NCBI GenBank assembly: GCA_045659745.1
Contig: JAZRCL010000073.1
Location: forward strand, 732 to 64,731
Direction of reading: 5' to 3'
Source of the DNA: Eubacteriales bacterium
GTDB lineage: Bacteria; Bacillota; Clostridia; Oscillospirales; CAG-272
DNA length: 64,000 bases
Below the pieces are notes generated by a model that saw only the letters and a list, made by a program, of their open reading frames with translations, was not told the origin of the DNA and searched no databases. The stretch's first letter is position 1, and each line of letters opens with the position of its first letter. Below are positions 5,515 through 55,921 of the stretch, piece after piece. A program made the translations under genes and the position numbers.

Positions 5515-6201
5515 ATGGTAAATAATAAGGTTTGCGTAATTGTCGGCGGAGCTGACGTCATATGTGCGTATTCCGCTAAAGAAATGGCAAAAAATGGATA
5601 TGTGACAGCAATAGTTGATACAAGTATTGACAATGCAAAAAGGATCGCAGATGAAATATGTACTTTCGGCGGACTTGCCAAGGCATATGAGGGAGATTGC
5701 TATAATTATGATTCCTTGTCAAGCGTGCGTGGATTGATTTCCGCAGAATTCGGAAAATGCAACGTAATTGTGAATAATTTACAGGGCGGCTCAAACGATG
5801 ATTCTTCGATAGATTGTGCATTAGTCTCTGCAAAAGTGTTTATAGGAGATATGAGTGGTGAGTCCGGATGCTCCGTGGTAAATATTTACCCAAGTGGTGA
5901 GTTTGAGATTGCAGCAGAAGAGATTACAAGAAAAATGGCGGTAAATCTTGCAGACGCGGGTATCAGAGTAAATGCAATAGTTTATAAAAATATAGTTGCA
6001 AGAAGCAACAAGAGCGAATTTTATAATGACGATAATACGCCCACGGAATCCGCACAAGCTATGCTTGAAGCAATACCTATGGGGAGATTTGGAAGACCCG
6101 ATGAGGTCGTGGGGGCGCTTAAATATTTAAGTGATCCTGTGGCGGCATCATATACAACAGGTACAGTTATACGAGTGGACGGCGGATATTCAGCGAGATA
6201 A
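5515..6201 (+). CDS. Short-chain dehydrogenase/reductase-fold protein with degenerate cofactor and catalytic motifs
   Basis: The C-terminus MGRFGRPDEVVGALKYLSD...YTTGTVIRVDGG is classic SDR. However TGxxxGxG reads VGGADVICA, NNAG reads NNLQ, and the YxxxK position reads F-E-I-A-A. Confidence 0.65.
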   Translation: MVNNKVCVIVGGADVICAYSAKEMAKNGYVTAIVDTSIDNAKRIADEICTFGGLAKAYEGDCYNYDSLSSVRGLISAEFGKCNVIVNNLQGGSNDDSSIDCALVSAKVFIGDMSGESGCSVVNIYPSGEFEIAAEEITRKMAVNLADAGIRVNAIVYKNIVARSNKSEFYNDDNTPTESAQAMLEAIPMGRFGRPDEVVGALKYLSDPVAASYTTGTVIRVDGGYSAR

Positions 6202-12877: not shown

Positions 12878-12908
12878 TTTTTATTAAAAAATAATGGGAG
12901 GTGAGGAA

Positions 12909-15900
12909 ATGGGCAAAAAGAAAGCTTCTGGCAACAATGATATGACTGCAATTTTGAATCAGCTGCAGAAAAACTACAGTGTCGATGGCGAAGACGATAT
13001 TTTTGAATCAGAGACTGCTTATGAGGACACAGAGCTTAGTGATCTTCTTGCCAAAATCCTCTCTGAGAATGATGTGAGCGATGATTCGCTCGATAATGAG
13101 GAAGAACTCGACTTGAACGAGGATAATGCCGCAAGCTCTAAACGAAAGCAGAAAAAGAGCAAAAAGTCGGGGGGCTCTGACGTATCCACCGACATTCAAA
13201 ATATTATTATGTCCGAAGAATATATCTCTGTTCTTCGTGACTGCGAGGCAGACCTTGATAGCGGAAATGAAAGCTCTGAGCATTCTGAGCCTCAAAACGT
13301 AGAAGAAAAATCCACTGAGGGTAGCCAACCTGAGATGGAGATAGCTCCTGAGATTCAGCCCGAGCAGATTTCTACTGAAAGTCGCGTCAGCTATGAGATA
13401 CAGCAGACAATTGTTGAAGAGCCTGCCATGGAGGAAGCAGTTGTTGCTTTTAAGGAAGTTGATGGCCAAGAAAGCGAAATTGACAATTATGAAAGCGACA
13501 TTGATGAAATGCTGACGTTCGGCGACCTCGATGATGATGAAGGAGACGTTGACGACAACCTTACATTCGGCGACCTCGATGATGATGAAGGAGACGTTGA
13601 CGACAACCTTACATTCGGCGACCTCGATGATGAGAAAGAAGACGTTGACGACAACCTCACGTTTGGCGACCTGGATGATGAGGAAGAAGACGTTGACGAC
13701 AACCTCACGTTTGGCGACCTCGATGATGAGGAAGAAGTTGACGACAACCTTACGTTCGGCGACCTGGATGATGAGGAAGAAGATGTTGACGACAACCTTA
13801 CATTCGGCGACCTCGATGATGAGGAAGAAGATGTTGACGATAATCTCACGTTTGGCCACCTCGATGATGAGGAAGAAGACGTTGACGATAAGCTCACATT
13901 CGGCGACCTCGATGATGAGGAAAGTGAAAAGGACGAGGATGTTCCCTTTGCTGACGTTGATGAAAACGTCGAAGATGTAATTGCGGCAGATGTTGAAAGC
14001 TCTGTTGAAGATGATGTTGTAGAGTTTACTTGCGAATTTGCACGGCTTGATGCTGTTGAAAATCAGGAGGAAACTCAATCATTTGACAAAACAAGTATTA
14101 TAAAACAAGAAGCATCTGAACCTGAAACAGAAAAGAAATTCTATTACACTGTTCTTGAGGAAATGAGCCTTGAGGATGAAACTAACAGCTCGGAAGAATA
14201 TACTGCACCGCAGGAACAGAAAATAGAAGAAATTGAGGAGCACGAAGAAAAGTCCCAGGCGTCTATTCAACCTCAAGAAGAAGTTTACATAGTTCTATCA
14301 AACGAATCCTATACGGATGATCCGTTGCAGTGGCATCTTGGTAGAGTGCAGACCAGATTGACTGACAATACAGAGGATGATGATATACAGGAGACTCAAA
14401 AAAAGTCTGTCGAGATAGGGGACGATGATATTTCCCTTTTGCTTCAGCTTGGATATAAGGATGAGATTGCATCCGAGGTTGGACAGGAACGAACAGAGTC
14501 TGTCGTCCACAGTATAAGCAATTCATACCGACCTGACAAAAATAAAATTCCATTTGGCTTTTGCGGGAAAGAATTTTTTGATGGCAGTCAGATTGATAAG
14601 ATAAAGCAAAGATACGATTATGACAAGAGAGCTATAATAATAAAGCTTGCATTGTTTTCATGTGTTTCAGTCGTGCTTTTGCTTCTTGGCATGCTTTTCA
14701 AAAATTACACAACGGTAAATTCAGTCATAATGTTCTCTGTTATGGAGCTTATGATATTGTCACTTGGAAGCTTTGTAATGCATAAAGAGCTGCTTTCTGG
14801 AATAAAAGGAGTGTTTAAGTTCTCCCCCACTGTGTTTACTATCCCCGTGATTTCGCTTTTTGTGCTGACAGCATTTGATATTTTCAACATAATTATAGGT
14901 ATCGTGAACCCCAATAATATAACGGTATCGACTACCTCGTTGTTTGGATTTACAACCTCTGTATTTTTCATGTTTGCTCTTGTCGTTGAGCTTATTAACT
15001 GCGTGCGAGAGCAAAGGACGTTTAATATTATTTCTGCATCAGAGGAGCTTTACACGGCAGAAACGCTTGTTTCCCAGCAAGGTGATAAATCAGGTATCAA
15101 CAATTTGCGTTCTCACGAGATACGAAAGCAAGTCAAAGGAAATGCAGTCATTGTAAAGAAAACAAGGTATATATCAGAATATTTCAAGAGATGCTCCGAG
15201 TCCTCTTACGGCATAAGAAATATTATGCTTATTTTGGGTGTAGTTACGCTAACGGCTGTGATGCTCGCATGCATAATTATCTCTATGGGACGCACGGCGG
15301 CTGACGTTGCTTCAACTGTTATTTTTGCATTTTATATGTGTCTGTCTGCATCTTTAGTGCTCACAATGCCCGTGACGCTCTTTGCGGCATCCCAGACTCT
15401 TGTGAAGAAAAAATGTGCAATAATAGGCACGGGAGCAGTGTCTGAGTATTCAGATATCAATTCTGTCATATTCCCTGATTCGGTTGCATTCAAGATAAAT
15501 AAAGATATTGAGGTTGTTCCATTTGGCGATGCTGATATGAATTCGTCAATAAAGACGGCAAACAGACTGTTCTCGGCACTTGGCGGCACTATGTCGAAGA
15601 TAGTTGGAGAAAATTCCTTCAACAAGGATTTGTCTGTAAGCGAGGCGGATATAAATATCGCGTCTGTGGACGATAACGGCATAGAGCTTTATATGGATAA
15701 CGACACTCATATATTGATTGGAAACGAGAAATTTGTCTATGAGCGACGCCATCAGCTTGGCTTTGATGCATGCGACCTTATTCCCTCTGCAATAAGTGCA
15801 GGACGTGAGGTAGTGTATCTCGCAATAAATGGAACTGTATGTCTTGGATATATCATGTCGCTTGGCGTCAATACGGAGTTTACGGACAAGGTCAAGCTTC

Positions 15901-16310
15901 TTGCAAAGAACCGTATTAAAACGTATGTTTCAACATACGAGCCGCACATAAAGGCAAAACGTTATAACGATTGCAAAATAGGAGTTTACAGACCGTATGA
16001 TCACGATTCTCCATCAAAGCCCTCGTCGCGCTATGGTGGCATTGTGGCATCGGGAGATGCAAAAAATATTACTTATCCTTTGATAATGACGTCGGAAATT
16101 CTTAAAATGTCGAGAAATTCCTCTAAAGTATCTATGTTGTTTATGCTTGGGGGTATAGTAATATCGTTTGCAACAACACTTGTTGGATACCTTGCGCCAG
16201 GCGCGCTTGGGCTTCTCAGACACAGAGATGTATTTACACTCATAATTCAGCTTCTCGGAGCAATACCTCTTACGGTAAGCGCGATAAAGCTTTGGAAAAA
16301 GTACAAGTAA
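12909..16310 (+). CDS. Large chimeric membrane protein: hyper-acidic repeat-containing N-terminal region (about 570 aa) plus a degenerate P1B-type-ATPase-like membrane core
   Basis: I chose the ATG at 12909, with a gggaggtgagg RBS; the ATG at 12894 lies inside that RBS. This is one uninterrupted frame. The C-terminal about 560 aa follow the CopA/ZntA order of TM helices and P/N-domain blocks. At the motif positions CPC reads YMCLSAS, DKTGT reads FPDSVAF and GDGxND reads SGDAKN. Confidence 0.7.
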   Translation: MGKKKASGNNDMTAILNQLQKNYSVDGEDDIFESETAYEDTELSDLLAKILSENDVSDDSLDNEEELDLNEDNAASSKRKQKKSKKSGGSDVSTDIQNIIMSEEYISVLRDCEADLDSGNESSEHSEPQNVEEKSTEGSQPEMEIAPEIQPEQISTESRVSYEIQQTIVEEPAMEEAVVAFKEVDGQESEIDNYESDIDEMLTFGDLDDDEGDVDDNLTFGDLDDDEGDVDDNLTFGDLDDEKEDVDDNLTFGDLDDEEEDVDDNLTFGDLDDEEEVDDNLTFGDLDDEEEDVDDNLTFGDLDDEEEDVDDNLTFGHLDDEEEDVDDKLTFGDLDDEESEKDEDVPFADVDENVEDVIAADVESSVEDDVVEFTCEFARLDAVENQEETQSFDKTSIIKQEASEPETEKKFYYTVLEEMSLEDETNSSEEYTAPQEQKIEEIEEHEEKSQASIQPQEEVYIVLSNESYTDDPLQWHLGRVQTRLTDNTEDDDIQETQKKSVEIGDDDISLLLQLGYKDEIASEVGQERTESVVHSISNSYRPDKNKIPFGFCGKEFFDGSQIDKIKQRYDYDKRAIIIKLALFSCVSVVLLLLGMLFKNYTTVNSVIMFSVMELMILSLGSFVMHKELLSGIKGVFKFSPTVFTIPVISLFVLTAFDIFNIIIGIVNPNNITVSTTSLFGFTTSVFFMFALVVELINCVREQRTFNIISASEELYTAETLVSQQGDKSGINNLRSHEIRKQVKGNAVIVKKTRYISEYFKRCSESSYGIRNIMLILGVVTLTAVMLACIIISMGRTAADVASTVIFAFYMCLSASLVLTMPVTLFAASQTLVKKKCAIIGTGAVSEYSDINSVIFPDSVAFKINKDIEVVPFGDADMNSSIKTANRLFSALGGTMSKIVGENSFNKDLSVSEADINIASVDDNGIELYMDNDTHILIGNEKFVYERRHQLGFDACDLIPSAISAGREVVYLAINGTVCLGYIMSLGVNTEFTDKVKLLAKNRIKTYVSTYEPHIKAKRYNDCKIGVYRPYDHDSPSKPSSRYGGIVASGDAKNITYPLIMTSEILKMSRNSSKVSMLFMLGGIVISFATTLVGYLAPGALGLLRHRDVFTLIIQLLGAIPLTVSAIKLWKKYK
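13497..13925 (+). repeat. In-frame tandem repeat: nine copies of a 48-bp (16-aa) unit, consensus DVDDNLTFGDLDDEEE; one copy is 45 bp
   Basis: Read directly from the sequence. The units start at ORF aa 202, 218, 234, 250, 266, 282, 297, 313 and 329. Copies differ mainly at synonymous sites (ttc/ttt, ctc/ctg, aca/acg). Confidence 0.95.
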
Positions 16311-25188: not shown

Positions 25189-27510
25189 TCAACCGTCAAC
25201 CCTTGAGAACTTAAATCTGTATATTTCAGGGGACAGAATAAGAGTAGCATCAGGCGAGACAAATGAGCTTGTATCATAGTATGCCGCGATCTCGTCGGTT
25301 GAGAATATCACGGTCTTAATATTAAATCCATTCTGTATTTTATATTTTTGCTTGGGCGTTGGTCCGCGACTACCAAAAATAAGGTGATCGGTCTTATTCA
25401 TATTGTCAAACATATCCTGCGAAAGACTGCTTTCCACGTATGACGGCGATATGTACGTTAAGGTTTCCTTGCCGACATTAAGGGTCAGCATAGTGATAGG
25501 AGCGGTTGAGCGACTTATGGTTTCTCTGTTTATTCTTACGGAAATACCGTCTATAAGATAAAGCTCCTCCCCGTCCTCATAAAAATCCACAATCACGTTG
25601 TTATCCTTGGCGCACTCCATTATGGCTGTCATTCTGAAATAATCGTCGTTGCCTTCGGGCTTTGGCATATATAGCCTTCTTATGCGTTGAGACTGAAAAG
25701 ATTTTGATAGACTTGCTATATGTGCCGTTGTGTATTTTGTAATCACAAGACAGTCTATCTCGGTAGCGTTGAGGTTGCTAAGCTCATGGTATGCGCAGTT
25801 CAGGCTGGAATAATATCCCGGTGTCATATCAAACAGTACCGTATCTTCTCCGTTGTTTGCGAGTATGATATTTCGGTCATCCGATTGGTTTACATAAGAT
25901 ATTCTTATATTTTGAGTGTTTTTATATGACACACAACCAATTGCTACAAAGAAAACTGTAAGCGCGATAACAAACGGCACGGGTGACAGATATCTGCGCT
26001 TGAATTTCAGTGCAAGACAGAAAAACAGCACAACACCTAGAGTTATTGCTGCGATTGCAGTAAATTCATAATTGAGTGATATCATACAATCGTCTCGCAA
26101 GGATATTTTCTCACAATATCCCGTCATAAATTTTGAGCATGTAGTAATACCAAGCCCAATAAGCTTACCGATAATTGGAGTCTTCATAAATATCAGGTAA
26201 AGCGGAGTCAGTATAAGTAGTGCCTCGGTAGGTAGTCCTAAAAGTAATGACGACTTCACGGAAAACAGAGACATTTCTTGCGTGAAGATGCAGAAAACTA
26301 TAATCAGCGGCGCGATTGCACAAACAGACGTCAATATCAAAGTCACTATGGTGCGTATAGGAGCGATCAATATTTTCCACTTTGCATAGTATGGTTGGAA
26401 CAAGTAAAATGCAAAGTTCTGGAACGTGGGTATATAAACCAAAATTCCAAAGGTTGCAGCAAATGACATCCAGAACCCAGCGTCAAGAATGGCATGCGGA
26501 GAAAACACGAAAATAATCACACCCGCTATCGATAGTGACGTCAACGGGTCAGACTGATAAGAGCATATCATCGAAAGATACACTATCAAAAGCATAATTA
26601 TGGAACGCGTAGCGGATATTGAAAAGCCCGTGAAAGCGAGATAAAACACCGCTAATAGCGATAGTATCACGGCGCGTGGCTTGTACGGAATAAAGAGTTT
26701 TTTGAGTATAAATGCAATAACACCGAATATAATGCTCATGTGCATACCGCTTATCGCAAGTATATGTGATGCGCCCGCTCGTCTGAAATCACGCTTGATA
26801 CTTGTAGGGATAACTTCCTTGTTTCCAAGAAATAAAGCAGAGCATACACCGCCGACGTCATCGCCCAAGGCGTTGATCAGTCTGTATGAGAGTCTTGCAT
26901 TCATTCTTGAGAGGACGGCTAAAGGGTGCTTGCTTTTCTCAATATATACGCCGAGGTCCTCTTCGGAATCCGACACGAACTTAACGAGTACTCCGTCGGC
27001 GAGCATCATATCCGCTTCTCTGTAAGCGCCGACCTGCTCTTCAAATTGACCTATTCTAAACTGCCCGCGTATCTCGTTTCCTACCTGAATGTTGGCAAGA
27101 TATTCGCATTCAAGACTTGCCTTAAAGGAGTCGGCGTTGCCGTTCATGCTCGTGACGAGAATAGTATATTCACTTGACGCTCCTGCAGCATACGACTCAG
27201 ATAAAACTATACCCTCAATTATGTATTCTTGATCATCAGGAAGACTTTCATATTTTTTAATTCTGACGTCAAAGCACATAATCGAAGAGACCGATGATAA
27301 AATTATAAATACACAGCAAAAAATAATCGTGATAAATTTATTGATTGAAATTTTGCGGATGATTTTAAAAGCTATAAATATCAGAGCGACAAGCAAGGAA
27401 AGCGCGGCACATATTATTTTTGTTTTTAGATTGACGTAATAGAAAATAACGGAGAACGCAATAAACAACATACATCCGCAAAACAAAGGTCTGTTCTTAA
27501 AAATGTTCAT
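25189..27510 (-). CDS. comEC: ComEC/Rec2-family DNA internalisation channel protein
   Basis: RBS aagggag. The competence domain (GASHILAISGMHMSIIF) is flanked by many TM helices. The C-terminal beta-lactamase-like region has degenerate metal motifs. Confidence 0.8.
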   Translation of the reverse strand: MNIFKNRPLFCGCMLFIAFSVIFYYVNLKTKIICAALSLLVALIFIAFKIIRKISINKFITIIFCCVFIILSSVSSIMCFDVRIKKYESLPDDQEYIIEGIVLSESYAAGASSEYTILVTSMNGNADSFKASLECEYLANIQVGNEIRGQFRIGQFEEQVGAYREADMMLADGVLVKFVSDSEEDLGVYIEKSKHPLAVLSRMNARLSYRLINALGDDVGGVCSALFLGNKEVIPTSIKRDFRRAGASHILAISGMHMSIIFGVIAFILKKLFIPYKPRAVILSLLAVFYLAFTGFSISATRSIIMLLIVYLSMICSYQSDPLTSLSIAGVIIFVFSPHAILDAGFWMSFAATFGILVYIPTFQNFAFYLFQPYYAKWKILIAPIRTIVTLILTSVCAIAPLIIVFCIFTQEMSLFSVKSSLLLGLPTEALLILTPLYLIFMKTPIIGKLIGLGITTCSKFMTGYCEKISLRDDCMISLNYEFTAIAAITLGVVLFFCLALKFKRRYLSPVPFVIALTVFFVAIGCVSYKNTQNIRISYVNQSDDRNIILANNGEDTVLFDMTPGYYSSLNCAYHELSNLNATEIDCLVITKYTTAHIASLSKSFQSQRIRRLYMPKPEGNDDYFRMTAIMECAKDNNVIVDFYEDGEELYLIDGISVRINRETISRSTAPITMLTLNVGKETLTYISPSYVESSLSQDMFDNMNKTDHLIFGSRGPTPKQKYKIQNGFNIKTVIFSTDEIAAYYDTSSFVSPDATLILSPEIYRFKFSRVDG

Positions 27511-27577
27511 TACGTATCTCCCTTCTAAAAATTTTAGACTATAAAACTGTCAAAATAAAAAATTTTTTCAAAATTGC

Positions 27578-27606
27578 TTGACAAATGTATCGAAAGACTA
27601 TATAAT
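27578..27606 (+). promoter_or_regulatory. Consensus sigA promoter
   Basis: TTGACA (27578-27583), exactly 17 nt, then TATAAT (27601-27606), about 60 nt upstream of the ACP gene. Confidence 0.7.
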
Positions 27607-27667
27607 AAGCGTGTTGTGACAGTTGAATGTATTCGACTGCAAATGAAAATTTACAGGAGGAATTGAA

Positions 27668-27892
27668 ATGTTTGAGAAAGTTAAGGAGCTTCTCGTATCT
27701 GAGCTCCAGATAAACGAGTCTGATATCACTCTTGATGCAGAGCTTTCTGCAGATCTTGGAATCAACTCTATCGAGCTTGCTGACCTTGTAATGATTTGCG
27801 AGGAGAAGTTTGATCTTACTATTGAAGATGAAGATCTTCATTCTTTCATTACAGTCGGTGACGTAGTAAACTATCTCGAGTCTACTCTTTAA
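27668..27892 (+). CDS. acpP: Acyl carrier protein (stand-alone)
   Basis: RBS aggagga. 74 aa with DLGINSIELADLV, containing the phosphopantetheine-attachment Ser. Confidence 0.8.
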   Translation: MFEKVKELLVSELQINESDITLDAELSADLGINSIELADLVMICEEKFDLTIEDEDLHSFITVGDVVNYLESTL

Positions 27893-50149: not shown

Positions 50150-51064
50150 ATGAAAATTATTAAATATAGATTTACACTTATCGGAGGAGACAAGCGCATA
50201 GTTGCATTGGCAAAAATTTTAGCTTCTCGCGGACATACTGTCAACGCATGTAATTTGAGCGAGGATCTGTCGGCATATAGCGGTATTAAGGTATATAGCA
50301 GCTTTGATCGGGCTATTGCAGACGGAGATTTTACAGTGCTCCCTATGCCAATATCGCGTGATGGAGCTCACGTACTCTCTAACGTTGGAGACGTCGACGA
50401 GCAGATCCTTATAGCTGATGTTTTCGACTGCGCCAAGAGGTGCGGTGTCAAGTATATTCTTGGCGGAAACATAAGCAAAAGCATCAAGGAGTTGGCGGAA
50501 AATAAGGGAGTTTCCCTTGTTGATTATTCCCTGTCCGAGCAGTTTTTGCAGAGCAACGCCGACTCCACCGCCGAGGGCGGCATAATGGTGGCTATGGAAA
50601 ACACCGACGTGACGGTAAAGGATAGCAAAGTACTTGTCGGCGGATACGGACGGATAGCAAAATATCTCTCAAAGCTCTTGCTTTCAATGGGAGCTGACGT
50701 GACGGTTGCCGCGAGAGGTGACGAGGCGTTGAGTCACGCATCATCTCTTGGCTGCAACGGGGTAAAGATAGGAGACTCGGGCAATCCCGAAAAATTCAAG
50801 CAGGCTATACAAAACAGTCAGATAATATTCAACACAGTTCCCTCCATGATTTTTACGGAGGAGCTTATAGGAAACAAAAGCTCTGCGACGTATATTGAGC
50901 TTGCGTCCTGCCCCGGCGGAATTGATCTCCGCGCGGCGCGAGAGGCAGGTATGAAGATAATTTTTGCGCCCTCGCTCCCCGGAAGATATTCTCCCGAGAG
51001 CGCGGGCAAATACATTTTTGAGAGCATATACCAAAATCTCAAAGAAAGGGTTATTTATATATGA
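50150..51064 (+). CDS. dpaA: Dipicolinate synthase subunit A
   Basis: RBS ggagg. FTLIGGDKR opening and the GYGRIAKYL Rossmann motif. The gene is coupled to dpaB by an ATGA overlap. Confidence 0.85.
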   Translation: MKIIKYRFTLIGGDKRIVALAKILASRGHTVNACNLSEDLSAYSGIKVYSSFDRAIADGDFTVLPMPISRDGAHVLSNVGDVDEQILIADVFDCAKRCGVKYILGGNISKSIKELAENKGVSLVDYSLSEQFLQSNADSTAEGGIMVAMENTDVTVKDSKVLVGGYGRIAKYLSKLLLSMGADVTVAARGDEALSHASSLGCNGVKIGDSGNPEKFKQAIQNSQIIFNTVPSMIFTEELIGNKSSATYIELASCPGGIDLRAAREAGMKIIFAPSLPGRYSPESAGKYIFESIYQNLKERVIYI

Positions 51065-51618
51065 TAGGCTTTGCAATGTGCGGCTCATTTTGCAGCTTTG
51101 ATAAGTCATATAAAGCCCTTGAGAAGCTCAAGGATAAATATGACGTAGTTCCAATAATGAGTAATAACGCGTATTATACAGATACAAGATTCGGAAAGGC
51201 TTCCGAATGGAATCAGAAAGTTGCGACTCTGTGCGACAGACCGATAATCCACTCAATAGGCGAGGCGGAGCCGTTAGGACCGAAGGCGGCGCTTGAAGCG
51301 CTTGTTATCTGCCCTTGCACGGGCAACACGCTTGCCAAAATTGCAAACGGCATCACCGACACACCCGTGTGTATGGCGGCAAAGGCGCATCTGCGGTGCG
51401 ACCGTCCCCTGCTTATCGCCTTGGCGTCAAACGACGCAATGTCCGCAAACCTTGCGAACATTTCAAAGCTTCTGGTGCGAAAAAATATATATTTCGTGCC
51501 TATGTGTCAGGACGATCCCGACAAAAAACCGCACTCGCTTGTATCGGACTTTTCGCAGGTGCCCGACGCGCTTGAAGCAGCGCTCAATGGCAAGCAGCTC
51601 AGGAAGATGTTTTTGTGA
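51061..51618 (+). CDS. dpaB: Dipicolinate synthase subunit B
   Basis: IGFAMCGSFCSF and ICPCTGNTLAKIANGITD, flavoprotein-fold SpoVFB motifs. Confidence 0.85.
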   Translation: MIGFAMCGSFCSFDKSYKALEKLKDKYDVVPIMSNNAYYTDTRFGKASEWNQKVATLCDRPIIHSIGEAEPLGPKAALEALVICPCTGNTLAKIANGITDTPVCMAAKAHLRCDRPLLIALASNDAMSANLANISKLLVRKNIYFVPMCQDDPDKKPHSLVSDFSQVPDALEAALNGKQLRKMFL

Positions 51619-51619
51619 C

Positions 51620-51652
51620 AAAAAAGCCTTGCCGCGTGGCAAGGCTTTTTTC
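51620..51652. terminator. Bidirectional rho-independent terminator
   Basis: aaaaagccttgcc / ggcaaggcttttt stem. Confidence 0.85.
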
Positions 51653-51665
51653 TATTATTAGGTCA

Positions 51666-52220
51666 TTATGTGTCTTCTCTTGTAATTTCTACTTCAATTT
51701 GTGCTCTTTCTCCAACGAATTTCACATAATATATCTCGTCTTTATTGGCAATAAACTTGACATTTTCATTGGAGTCAATAGGTATATTATATAAAATTTG
51801 ATTATCTTCATCAGTGATTACAATTTTAAGGTTTCCACTTTTAACAGTTGAGTTTATGTTATATGAAACTTCTTTTCCATCTCCAAGGTATGCATTGGCT
51901 ACATACACTCCTGTAAGCATTCTTATATTGGTTTTAACATAAGAGGAATCACAATCTTCAAAAGGTCCTTCTATACCACTTCTATTATGATATTTCGACG
52001 AATCACGCCGCCTATATGCGTGATATTCTTCTGTGTACATCGAAATCATTTCATCGGTTATTATAGCCAACTCCTTGCTTTCACCGTTTTTATCTTCAAG
52101 TTGATAAGACATTTCCAACCTATGCTTTTTATAGAAAAGAATAACCGAAACGGCAATAATTAAACATGTAAGTACGACAATAGATACTATTATAAAGATT
52201 TTCTTTAGTTTATTATTCAT
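51666..52220 (-). CDS. Hypothetical N-terminally anchored protein (184 aa), AT-rich
   Basis: RBS aaagga. TM anchor IFIIVSIVVLTCLIIAVSVILF, then a beta-strand-rich ectodomain. I recognise no family. Confidence 0.55.
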   Translation of the reverse strand: MNNKLKKIFIIVSIVVLTCLIIAVSVILFYKKHRLEMSYQLEDKNGESKELAIITDEMISMYTEEYHAYRRRDSSKYHNRSGIEGPFEDCDSSYVKTNIRMLTGVYVANAYLGDGKEVSYNINSTVKSGNLKIVITDEDNQILYNIPIDSNENVKFIANKDEIYYVKFVGERAQIEVEITREDT

Positions 52221-52268
52221 CAGTATTGTTCCTTTCTTCAGAGATGGTGGTATTGGCGTTAATTTCTT

Positions 52269-52327
52269 TTAATACAAATCCCCCGGCTTAAAGGTATATT
52301 TGGAATTGCATAATCTGCAAATTATCT
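52269..52327 (-). repeat. Divergent 59-bp duplicate of the hslO 3' end including its stop codon (partner copy at 52641-52699)
   Basis: 53 of 59 positions are identical by my hand alignment, including a 20-bp perfect core tacaaatcccccggcttaaa. This copy translates to [18 protein letters not shown] against [19 protein letters not shown] in hslO. Confidence 0.85.
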
Positions 52328-52338
52328 ATACTAGGAAA

Positions 52339-52593
52339 TCAAAGCACATATGCAATATGGAACGTATCTAAATTATTTTGCAATGTATATTGCTCCAAAA
52401 ACATGTAATTTACAACTTGATTTATAGTTCCAGAAAAAATATTTTCTTCTATATGACAATCATAGATAAAATAATGGATTTCATTATTTTTGCAGTTATC
52501 ATAATCAGGTGTTAATAAATATTGGCTTTGGCAACAAGAAAATTCTATTTCTCGCCCTTGGTTCAAATATAATACTAATCTGTTAATATCCAT
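52339..52593 (-). CDS. Hypothetical protein (84 aa), AT-rich, between the two hslO 3'-end copies
   Basis: RBS aaggag. I recognise no family. Confidence 0.5.
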   Translation of the reverse strand: MDINRLVLYLNQGREIEFSCCQSQYLLTPDYDNCKNNEIHYFIYDCHIEENIFSGTINQVVNYMFLEQYTLQNNLDTFHIAYVL

Positions 52594-52640
52594 TTTATAG
52601 CCTTTTCTCCTTTTTCAATAAATCGTATTATGACAGATTA

Positions 52641-53519
52641 TTAGTACAAATCCCCCGGCTTAAACGTATATTTCGAATTACAGAATCTGCAAACTATCTC
52701 GAGTTCCTCGGGCTTGCCCTCGGCGATCTGCTCGGCAAAGAGCTTTTCAAGGTCGGTTTTGCCAATGGATACAAGCGCCTGCTTCATTCTCTCTTCGGAG
52801 CATGTGCAGAGGTAGTCCACGTCTATCTCGTCGAACAAGTCGTATTCTATTCCCTCCATAGTCATCTTGAGGATTTCCTGATTGTCCATTCCCTCCTCAA
52901 AAAGGCGGGAAACATTTGAGAGCTTGGGTATATTCTTTTCTATCTGCGACACGGTCTCCTCATCTGCAAAAGGAAGAAGCTGAATGATAATTCCGCCCGC
53001 CGCCTTGCACGACCAGTCGGTATCTACAAGCACGCCGAGTGAGCAAACGGTGGGTACCTGCTCGCTCTCCGCGTAGTAGGTCGCTATATCCTCTGCAATC
53101 TCGCCCGACACAAGCTCAACCGAGCCGTTATAAGGCTCGCCGTCACCGATGTCCTTTATCATATTGAGAAATCCGCGTCCGACAGCTCCGCCTACGTCAA
53201 GCTTTCCGTTGGACTTGAGAGGCAGATCAACCTCGGGATTCTGGATATATCCGCGCACGTTTCCGATATAGTCGGACGTGACGATAACGCGTCCCGCAGG
53301 TCCGTCGCCGTAAAGGGATACGGTCACGCTGTCCTCTTTTTCTCCAAGCATACAACCAATCATGGACGTAGCTGTGAGAAGTCTGCCAAGGGTTGCCGTT
53401 GCGGTGGGAGTTGTATTGTGATATTTAATTGCCTGATTGACAATTTCAGTTGAATTTATTACGTGTATTCTCGCGCTGCCGTCACTCGTCATTGCGCGCA
53501 AAATTTTTGATTGAGACAT
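52641..53519 (-). CDS. hslO: Hsp33-family redox-regulated chaperone
   Basis: RBS agagga. The C-terminal zinc centre is CTCS...CRFC. Confidence 0.9.
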
Positions 53520-54318: not shown

Positions 54319-54624
54319 TTATTTATGCTTTTTTTCCTCAATTTTGATATTTTCAATCACCTTGCTGTATCCGCCGTTGCCGTACTTTATGCAATGGTTT
54401 ACGCGGCTTATGGTCGCGGTGCTGAGTCCTGTTTGAGCCGCTATTTCGGAATAAACGTACCCGTCGCTGAGCATTTTTGCCGCCTTTATTCTGCGCGACA
54501 TTTCCTGAAGCTCAGAGACCGTGCAAAGGTCCTCGAAAAAGTTCTTGCAGTCCTCGGGATTTTCAAGAGTTATTATTCCCTTGTAGAGGTATTCAATGTC
54601 TGCATCGAATTTAGAGTTTTTCAT
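54319..54624 (-). CDS. YerC/YecD-family TrpR-like protein
   Basis: FFEDLCTVSELQEMSRR and GLSTATISRVNHC. Confidence 0.8.
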   Translation of the reverse strand: MKNSKFDADIEYLYKGIITLENPEDCKNFFEDLCTVSELQEMSRRIKAAKMLSDGYVYSEIAAQTGLSTATISRVNHCIKYGNGGYSKVIENIKIEEKKHK

Positions 54625-54764
54625 AGGCTTGTACCGTCCTCTTTATTATTAGATGGGGCTCTGTGTATATTTTACCATTTTAGAGCGCTAAAGTAAAGGG
54701 GGTTTGCAAAAATTTTTATATTCCAAAAAATTAAACAATAAGTTTAGTTTTTGAAAATAATATA

Positions 54765-54793
54765 TTGACTTTGCAAAATAAATATTATATAAT
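54765..54793 (+). promoter_or_regulatory. SigA-type promoter
   Basis: TTGACT, 17 nt, then TATAAT (54788-54793). Confidence 0.6.
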
Positions 54794-54838
54794 AATATTT
54801 AGATAGTCAAAATACATTGACGAAAGGATTTTAGTCAA

Positions 54839-55921
54839 ATGACAGGAATTAAAATAGGACAGAAAATTCGTTTACTCCGAAAGAAAAACGATACTACGCA
54901 GGAAAAGCTTGCGGCGTATCTGAACGTGACTCCTCAGGCGGTTTCCCGTTGGGAGTCCGAGATATGCTATCCCGATATTGAGACTCTGCCCCTTATTGCC
55001 GATTTTTTCGGCGTAGGCATGGACGAGCTTCTCTGCTACGACAGCGTGCAAAAGGAAAGCAAGATAAAGGATTATCTCGCTCAGGCAGAGAGACTTGAGG
55101 ACGAGGAGAATATGACGGCGTGTCTTGAGCTTTTGCGTGAGGCGTATGCAGAGATTCCCTCCTCATTTGAGATTCAGCTTGAGCTTGCAAAGGTGCTTTC
55201 CGCAATAAACGCGGACAAGCCCAAAAAGGCAGACCTTGCAGAAGCTATATCGCTTTGCAATCACGTGCTTGATTACTGCACGGACGACGAGCTTCGTGAC
55301 GATACAAAGAAAACTCTTTGCGATATATATTCGCATCAGCTCCGCAACGATAAGGCGGCGCTTGATATTGCCGAAAAGCTTCACAGCATGGATTATAGCA
55401 AGGAGATAGTCAAGGCTACTGTGCTTACGGGAGATATCGCATTCCGTCAGGCGCAGACCAATATCATTGAGTTTGCGGACAATATCTGGTGGCATATATA
55501 CAATATTGCTTGTGTACCGGACATTTCAGAAAATAACTATTCCCTTGAGCAGAAGATTCAGGTAATGGAAAAAGGTATCGCGCTCTTTGACGTTATATTC
55601 GGCGACGGACTTCTCTATTATAACGACAGAATTGCGAACTCCTACCGTCAGCTTGCCATGCTCTATCTTATGCAGGGCGACCGAACAAAAGCTCTTGACT
55701 GCGTTGAAAAGATGGCGCAGTATGCAATAGCTTTTGATACGCGTCCCGATAACGTGAACTATTCCTCTATACTTATCAATAAGGTCGAGCATACAAGAGG
55801 AAACGACGTCAGCCTTTGCTCCAAGCTCCTCCGCGGCAGATTCTCAAGCAGAATCTGGGCGCCTATCAAGAGCGAGGCAAGATTTGTAGCGGCAATATCC
55901 GCTATGGAAAAACACATTTGA
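54839..55921 (+). CDS. XRE-family HTH regulator with a long helical (TPR-like) C-terminal domain
   Basis: IGQKIRLLRKKNDTTQEKLAAYLNVTPQAVSRWE is the HTH_3 domain. It is followed by about 290 aa of helical-repeat-looking sequence. Confidence 0.75.
   Translation: MTGIKIGQKIRLLRKKNDTTQEKLAAYLNVTPQAVSRWESEICYPDIETLPLIADFFGVGMDELLCYDSVQKESKIKDYLAQAERLEDEENMTACLELLREAYAEIPSSFEIQLELAKVLSAINADKPKKADLAEAISLCNHVLDYCTDDELRDDTKKTLCDIYSHQLRNDKAALDIAEKLHSMDYSKEIVKATVLTGDIAFRQAQTNIIEFADNIWWHIYNIACVPDISENNYSLEQKIQVMEKGIALFDVIFGDGLLYYNDRIANSYRQLAMLYLMQGDRTKALDCVEKMAQYAIAFDTRPDNVNYSSILINKVEHTRGNDVSLCSKLLRGRFSSRIWAPIKSEARFVAAISAMEKHI

Follow-up and report, generated by a model that had tools for sequence, protein, structure and literature searches.

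Our analysis concerns a 64,000-nucleotide (nt) window of contig JAZRCL010000073.1, from a bacterium of the Eubacteriales, in which the 3′ end of hslO, the gene for the redox chaperone Hsp33, is present in two copies with a small AT-rich gene between them. The locus was compared with related loci, designated L001 and upwards, that were collected by a scan of one genome per species and by look-ups based on protein identity; hslO lies on the plus strand in all of them. In the window, hslO occupies positions 52641–53519 of the minus strand and is intact. Its 292-amino-acid (aa) product matches PF01430 over the full length of the gene (residues 5–287, E=2e-90) and is 95–97% identical to Hsp33 from L001–L004 and L060. 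The working 3′ end, hereafter copy B (52641–52699, minus strand), comprises the last 19 codons and the stop of hslO and includes the C-terminal CxxC motif. It is followed on the same strand by a leader (52594–52640) in which a Shine–Dalgarno sequence (aaaggag) can be read and which is identical in L058, L059 and L060, by an 84-aa open reading frame (ORF; 52339–52593, GC 0.26), by an 11-nt spacer (52328–52338), and then by copy A (52269–52327), a displaced and untranslated hslO 3′ end.

Beyond copy A, still on the minus strand, a 48-nt spacer (52221–52268) that differs from its counterpart in L060 provides the ribosome-binding site of a 184-aa ORF (51666–52220, GC 0.31), so that both small genes have Shine–Dalgarno sequences. 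The array ends at a bidirectional intrinsic terminator with a 14-bp stem (51620–51651), common to the hslO operon and to the convergent dipicolinate synthase B gene, dpaB (51061–51618, plus strand; PF02441, E=1.5e-27), which forms the right flank of the insertion site and also adjoins hslO in L001, L002, L028 and L060. The genes upstream of the 84-aa ORF are a TrpR-like gene, a methyltransferase gene and hslO. A preliminary description of this DNA had proposed an AT-rich mini-cassette bracketed by the two hslO ends. Its statement that only the 84-aa ORF lies between the copies holds, whereas the AT-rich tract (GC about 0.30, versus about 0.49) extends beyond the bracketed segment, from about 51655 to 52640, and also holds the 184-aa, foreign-looking ORF on the far side of copy A. 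Other AT-rich tracts of 400–900 nt with GC below 0.30 occur in the window (54485–55013, 27135–27827, 2304–2894 and more), none of them as long as the one at hslO. The terminator at 51620–51651 is the sole terminator-like site between 51500 and 52800 and lies downstream of both small genes, and promoter-like matches at the locus are no commoner than in shuffled sequence; read-through from the hslO operon is therefore likely, and both genes are probably co-transcribed with hslO.

Copies A and B are direct repeats with 53 of 59 identical positions and a spacing of 372 nt; one tandem array aside, no other long direct repeat is dispersed in the window. Their 20-nt core, TACAAATCCCCCGGCTTAAA, occurs exactly twice in the 64 kb, and still only twice when three mismatches are allowed, against an expected number of 0.02; none of 100 shuffled sequences contained two matches. 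The repeat and its perfect core are thus as first described, as are the six differences between the copies: two are conservative replacements (V to I and F to L) and four are synonymous (in C, S, T and Y codons), a result for which the probability of at least four synonymous changes in six under random substitution is 0.014. The CxxC motif accordingly reads CRFC in copy B and CRLC in copy A. Copy A is untranslated, because a TAG within the 11-nt spacer, directly upstream, closes its frame.

Two types of hslO end circulate in this clade, and they identify the source of copy A. The G type, ...AAG CCG GGG GAT TTG TAC TAA (KPGDLY), is found in L001 and in every B copy; the N type, ...AAG CCG AAC GAC CTC TAT TAA (KPNDLY), ends the intact genes of L028 and L002. 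Copy A in L058, L059 and L060 is of the N type, though with 1 nt deleted and the TAA stop replaced by TGA; it abuts the terminator exactly as the intact hslO end does in L028, which marks it as a displaced and decaying gene end. The preliminary description had taken the second copy for the end of a once-functional, different hslO allele, and this it is: the KPNDLY allele of copy A in these three loci survives intact at the empty site of L028. In L058–L060, copies A and B are mismatched at 7 of their last 16 positions and have no more than about 18 nt in common, leaving the window as the only one of the four carriers with the perfect 20-bp core. A core that is private to the window cannot be a conserved attachment (att) core, and the attL/attR-like footprint suggested at first loses its basis there.

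Copy A of the window is itself composite. In its left part, two changes, a at −54 and c at −40, recur in copy A of L059 and L060 but in none of six functional hslO ends. Its right part (the last third) belongs to the G type, with T at −4 as the one N-like position; the same part is of the N type in L059 and L060. On the simplest reading of these sequences, the 20-bp perfect stretch would have arisen in the lineage of the window, when a short patch of B was transferred to A by conversion or crossover. The working ends show a switch of their own: between the window and L060 the last 24 nt of hslO are identical and 11 positions differ in the preceding 100 nt. As a separate observation, the G-type end (CCGGGGGATTTGTACTAA, window 52641–52664) resembles a coding sequence for the end of an Rhs core (CTGGGGACGGTTTGTTAAT, L067:30–61); this resemblance might have supplied microhomology for a first illegitimate joint, or might be coincidence.

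The interval between hslO and dpaB exists in several states among the relatives. It is empty in L028 and L002, where nothing separates the hslO stop from the bidirectional terminator, AAAAAAGCCTTGCC-GCGY-GGCAAGGCTTTTTT, which also serves convergent dpaB, and empty but for a 97-nt AT-rich spacer between stop and terminator in L001 (L001:6880–6976). L059, a 607-bp contig found in two samples, has the 84-aa gene only, in the order copy B, 84-aa gene, copy A, terminator, dpaB; L058, L060 (a 102-kb contig) and the window add the 184-aa gene to this arrangement. Unrelated genes occupy the same spot in L003 and L012: a 665-aa ORF behind a different hslO end (IFTPEQLK) in the former (L003:6880–8990) and three unrelated ORFs in the latter (L012:6880–9320). 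The hslO–dpaB junction is thus a general hot spot for variation. The flanks of L060 and of the empty L001 are 98.4–98.8% identical, so the insertions are polymorphic within one species-level lineage. The search for an empty site in relatives that the preliminary description had called for succeeded in L001, L002 and L028, and the uniform arrangement across relatives that it had named as evidence against insertion was not observed, empty, one-gene and two-gene states all being present. Exact-protein look-ups with the hslO, 84-aa and dpaB products of the window returned no record, and a JGI metagenome scan with a degenerate hslO-end pattern gave no match.

The two small genes arrived separately. 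The 313-nt insert with the 84-aa gene has the same size in all four carriers, whose lineages are 9–11% apart in the flanks. The 184-aa gene is a second, independent insertion: it is absent from L059, and in L060 its cassette stands between two identical 23-nt sequences in direct orientation, AAAAAAGCCTTGCCGCGCGGCAA (L060:4896–4918 and 5570–5592), corresponding to the terminator's left arm, its loop and a portion of its right arm. Target sequence has thus been duplicated a second time at this locus. In the window the left 23-nt terminator copy is gone and the unrelated 48-nt spacer stands in its place. Neither this spacer nor the 97-nt spacer of L001 matched anything among the sequences compared. 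The terminator junction and the hslO-end junction have no motif in common, which speaks against a sequence-specific process.

Divergence between the window and L060 is distributed unevenly along the locus. The hslO genes differ at 75 of 879 nt (60 synonymous and 10 non-synonymous codon changes) and the dpaB genes at 19 of 558 (16 and 3). The 84-aa genes differ at only 7 of 255 nt, with 1 synonymous and 6 non-synonymous changes, and the 184-aa genes at 10 of 555, nearly all in the membrane helix, DNA identity being 99–100% over 51700–52100. Although L059 and L060 have identical 84-aa ORFs, 3 of the 9 hslO positions immediately before −24 differ between them. At 2–3%, the cassette genes are far less divergent between lineages than their flanks (8.5% in hslO), a pattern that indicates horizontal spread. 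A ComEC-type competence gene in the window (25189–27510; PF03772, E=3e-40) bears on how such spread might occur, since it may give the lineage a capacity for DNA uptake.

Searches of Pfam, NCBIfam, PADLOC, PHROGs and PDB sequences returned nothing usable for either cassette protein. The 84-aa family nevertheless has 55 relatives at E<1e-3 (HMMER, 1.84 billion representatives), all of about 80–90 aa and with a GREIEF motif, and the AlphaFold model of the window protein is very confident (predicted local distance difference test (pLDDT) 95.5, predicted template modelling score 0.85). With no match to PDB folds better than E=0.48, the model may represent an undescribed small immunity fold. Following up the homologues, as had been suggested at the outset, led directly to toxin genes. 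In L065, L069, L070 and L071 the 84-aa homologue starts −4 to +12 nt relative to the stop of an upstream Rhs gene with YD repeats and an RHS-associated core (TIGR03696, E from 6e-17 to 9e-21), and all four upstream genes end in the same C-terminal tip, ...GPDGKAEYDIDYRH...FPH[KR]H.WDW.... Cognate immunity genes occupy just this place. In L067 a homologue stands two genes behind another Rhs tip, and on three short contigs with homologues (L066, L068 and L072) an Rhs gene is absent. The tip family containing GPDGKAEYDIDYRH (L065:1–1191, L069:2–244, L070:3–284 and L071:2054–3004) is unmatched in Pfam and in every case precedes a gene of the 84-aa family; it is a candidate new toxin domain.

A parallel arrangement is seen for the 184-aa protein, modelled by AlphaFold as an N-terminal transmembrane helix and a beta-sandwich (pLDDT 76) with weak matches to GOLD, CBM and PliG folds. 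In L061/62, L063/64 and L073 the start of its relatives overlaps the stop of a Gly-rich tip (...GIGG[SG][IL][IV][IV]E[WC][DE]*); the relative in L061 sits among an array of Rhs core fragments (TIGR03696, 2e-12), and L074 retains only a remnant of the tip. This toxin-like tip, ...GVKGN.GS.G...GIGGSIIVEWD* (L073:453–602, L063:352–867 and L061:4811–5017), always overlaps the start of a gene of the 184-aa family, and the pair looks like a membrane-active, possibly glycine-zipper-like toxin with a membrane-anchored immunity protein.

In these native arrays the immunity-like genes are separated by GGGGACGGTTC, which encodes W-G-R-F at the end of the Rhs core and sometimes occurs as inverted pairs (L063:1418 and 2547; L067:38, 1214 and 1252; L074:410, 516, 1121, 1578, 2065 and 2113). 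The motif marks arrays of orphan Rhs modules in uncultured Clostridia, and its position between immunity genes is a classical sign of C-terminal displacement. An 80-nt repeat in L063 was considered as a second example of the repeat signature seen at hslO and rejected: two tandem paralogues have this 3′ end and terminator in common, and a remnant of the Rhs core stands at the start of the repeat. The window contains no GGGGACGGTTC motif and no Rhs gene among its largest ORFs, and on current evidence both of its cassette genes are therefore orphans. Taken with the neighbourhoods of their relatives, the 84-aa and 184-aa genes are probably orphan immunity genes against Rhs-type toxin tips.

Machinery that could have moved the genes was sought in the window and in mobile elements. 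A PHROG scan of the 44 large ORFs of the window shows no integrase among the best 25 of 38 matched families, in line with the absence of an integrase noted in the preliminary description, and Pfam assigns only housekeeping functions to the nine largest ORFs. No match was found in phages, plasmids or viral contigs; close homologues of the 84-aa protein were found at this locus only, and its cassette was not seen at another site or in an array. Both strands of both 59-mers fold no better than shuffled sequences (z from −0.97 to +1.26), which gives no sign of an attC-like fold, and neither intI nor attI was found adjacent to the cassette. An Rfam search produced nothing at or near any gathering score, only four chance-level matches confined to the terminator (about 51550–51671), and none near copy A. 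Of the features that define rAID-1 elements, the two low-GC co-directional genes are present; a recombinase and a common intergenic motif were not found. Elsewhere in the window, a 1,138-aa ORF without a Pfam match (12894–16310) contains about nine overlapping tandem copies with a 48-nt (16-codon) period at 13390–14007.

We consider gene-end displacement by general or illegitimate recombination at the hslO end, involving two promoterless orphan immunity genes, to be the best account of the locus, with a probability of roughly 55%. The interval from the hslO stop to the terminator shared with dpaB is a polymorphic insertion site, into which the 84-aa gene would have come together with a working hslO end (copy B), pushing the resident end (copy A) downstream, where it is now decaying. 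The route would most likely be recombination of a general or illegitimate kind anchored on hslO-end homology, with no dedicated integrase; once in place, the two hslO-end copies would offer homology on both sides, allowing the cassette to move between lineages by ordinary recombination. The 184-aa gene would have entered separately, at the terminator. Both genes would be read through from the hslO operon and would protect the cell from toxins delivered by neighbouring rivals. Between the two origins that the preliminary description had left side by side, a decayed island remnant and a cassette moved by homology at the gene end, the data fit the second better; the first is unlikely, given that the same 313-nt insert recurs in four carriers with an intact gene of a real protein family.

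Several observations weigh against displacement. The window, L060 and L059 carry three different sequences just upstream of hslO position −24 and are all the same from there on, and the allele switch in copy A falls in the same TTTAAGCCG stretch, which a reciprocal crossover at a fixed site predicts too. One-sided displacement predicts a foreign allele in B and an all-native A, whereas the left part of A carries changes absent from functional ends. Of the homologous crossover and the illegitimate joint at a microhomology that displacement implies, the right joint has only AGATA in common, and the allele pattern fits a reciprocal crossover about equally well. The known carrier contigs number four, two of them nearly identical, and the recombinase scan covered the 64-kb window, so that such a gene may lie elsewhere in the genome. 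The immunity function is assigned from gene neighbourhood alone, and a toxin remnant could not be demonstrated in the window cassettes. The cassette leaders in the window and in L060 were compared with toxin gene ends, but this yielded no more than 10 nt matching the 3′ end of the toxin gene in L065, which is too weak to count, and a peptide similarity short of significance, and a toxin origin of the leaders is not claimed.

These observations lend some weight to an integron-like mechanism, in which a site-specific recombinase encoded elsewhere in the genome, crossing over near TTTAAGCCG, moves a circle of roughly 372 bp into and out of the hslO 3′ end, the circle carrying one immunity gene and a 59-nt mimic of the hslO end. 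The alleles are arranged reciprocally, copy B being lineage-specific on the left and shared on the right and copy A shared on the left and lineage-specific on the right, and both switches fall within the same stretch of about 10–20 nt in the window and in L059/L060. The insert size does not vary among carriers, its single promoterless ORF is what integron cassettes contain, and recombinase-associated, integron-like arrays of immunity genes are known from Bacteroidales as rAID-1 (10.1101/471110). Yet the switch falls in the longest block over which the alleles are identical (18–20 nt), where homologous exchange is likeliest in any case, and the mosaic of copy A, considered as proof of reciprocal crossover, failed as such: informative sites are too few, and the excess of left-part changes is not significant (Fisher p=0.11). 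The second cassette, moreover, has a different junction, the 59-mer is neither an imperfect palindrome nor a folding element, no recombinase was found in the window, and the unit was never seen at another site, in an array or on a phage, plasmid or viral contig. We regard this mechanism as doubtful, though still in contention, and the more specific proposal that the 84-aa gene is a free-standing mobile cassette, using a 59-nt imitation of a housekeeping-gene end as its attachment site for a recombinase encoded elsewhere, as somewhat more doubtful still.

Two further explanations account for less. A larger prophage, integrative and conjugative element (ICE) or cis-mobilisable element (CIME) integrated at the hslO 3′ end could have shrunk to attL, one gene and attR; such elements classically leave behind a duplicated gene 3′ end, one copy of which replaces the original, and both the AT richness of the tract and the existence of empty sites agree with this. 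An element in decay, however, would have to account for the same 313-nt insert with an intact gene in all four carriers, across flanks 9–11% apart and with no larger form seen, and neither a core conserved between the copies of L058–L060, an integrase or phage gene nearby, nor a phage or plasmid match was found, making a remnant improbable. It would be harder still to maintain that copy A is kept for a function of its own, as a terminator, small RNA or regulatory site, or that it reflects chance or faulty assembly. Its place between two co-directional genes is one where a processing or attenuation signal could act, and the preliminary description had allowed for a functional RNA or terminator; there is, on the other hand, no Rfam match in or near copy A, no terminator-like site there and no folding beyond the level of shuffles, and the frameshift and different last third in L058–L060 imply a sequence that is not conserved for its own sake, while the recurrence of the arrangement in four independent assemblies speaks against an artefact.

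If gene-end displacement is correct, the locus provides a single-base view of a gut clostridial lineage gaining stand-alone Rhs immunity genes, with empty, one-gene and two-gene states all present in nature, and indicates how genes placed behind a housekeeping gene may borrow its promoter without damaging it. Two uncharacterised families would join the candidate immunity repertoire of Firmicutes, one an 84-aa protein with a confidently predicted fold that has no solved counterpart and the other a putative membrane-anchored beta-sandwich. Were the crossover site-specific, the locus would instead represent a new cassette system; and a cassette moved by a recombinase acting in trans would imply integron-like collecting of anti-toxin immunity genes in gut Clostridia, plugged into constitutively expressed operons.

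Several known systems resemble parts of this arrangement. WapA and WapI of Bacillus subtilis are an Rhs-family toxin and its immunity protein in a Gram-positive bacterium; a small immunity gene directly behind the variable tip of a YD/Rhs-repeat toxin is likewise what we see in L065 and L071, but in the window the toxin partner is missing. Integron cassettes, too, are single promoterless ORFs of a few hundred bases that use an upstream promoter and are inserted next to earlier cassettes. They differ from the insert at hslO, which has no intI and no attC-like imperfect palindrome and is bracketed by a repeat that is coding sequence of the neighbouring gene. CIMEs, which are integrase-less and cis-mobilisable, occupy the 3′ end of fda in Streptococcus thermophilus, and in attL/attR elements of this kind, as here, foreign DNA lies between direct repeats of a gene 3′ end, the gene is left intact and sites without an insert are known. 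Unlike them, the insert at hslO has no integrase that was found and no core conserved among its carriers, measures 313 nt and was never seen within a larger element.

To qualify as rAID-1, an element of Bacteroidales must have a XerD-like recombinase at the 5′ end, two or more co-directional genes with GC no higher than 41%, and repeated intergenic motifs (Ross et al., bioRxiv 10.1101/471110). Like acquired interbacterial defence (AID) and rAID-1 clusters, the hslO locus has low-GC, co-directional, toxin-less genes of probable immunity function that appear horizontally acquired and are more alike between strains than the surrounding genome. It has neither a XerD-like recombinase nor repeated intergenic motifs, consists of two genes only, placed on a housekeeping operon, and belongs to a clostridial gut host and Rhs-type toxins, whereas rAID-1 is directed at type VI secretion system (T6SS) effectors among Bacteroidales.

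The closest parallel is C-terminal displacement, known from Rhs, contact-dependent inhibition (CDI) and T6SS effector–immunity loci (Jackson et al. 2009 as cited in PMC5361080; Kirchberger et al. 2017, PMC5361080), a process that gives rise to orphan modules in Rhs and T6SS loci. The locus departs from it in that the end of a housekeeping chaperone gene was displaced, not that of a toxin gene, that no toxin came along, and that the new hslO end encodes the same protein, with 18 of 18 residues identical or conservative, leaving Hsp33 unchanged. In both, the incoming module would consist of a new gene end and an immunity gene, and the old end lies untranslated downstream, homologous to the working one; in both, presence or absence varies among close strains and the proposed route is illegitimate recombination anchored on homology. 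Relatives of both cassette genes, furthermore, sit in Rhs arrays with core-end remnants of the GGGGACGGTTC (WGRF) kind. Gene-end displacement, so far described for toxin genes themselves, would in this way be extended to a gene that is not a toxin.

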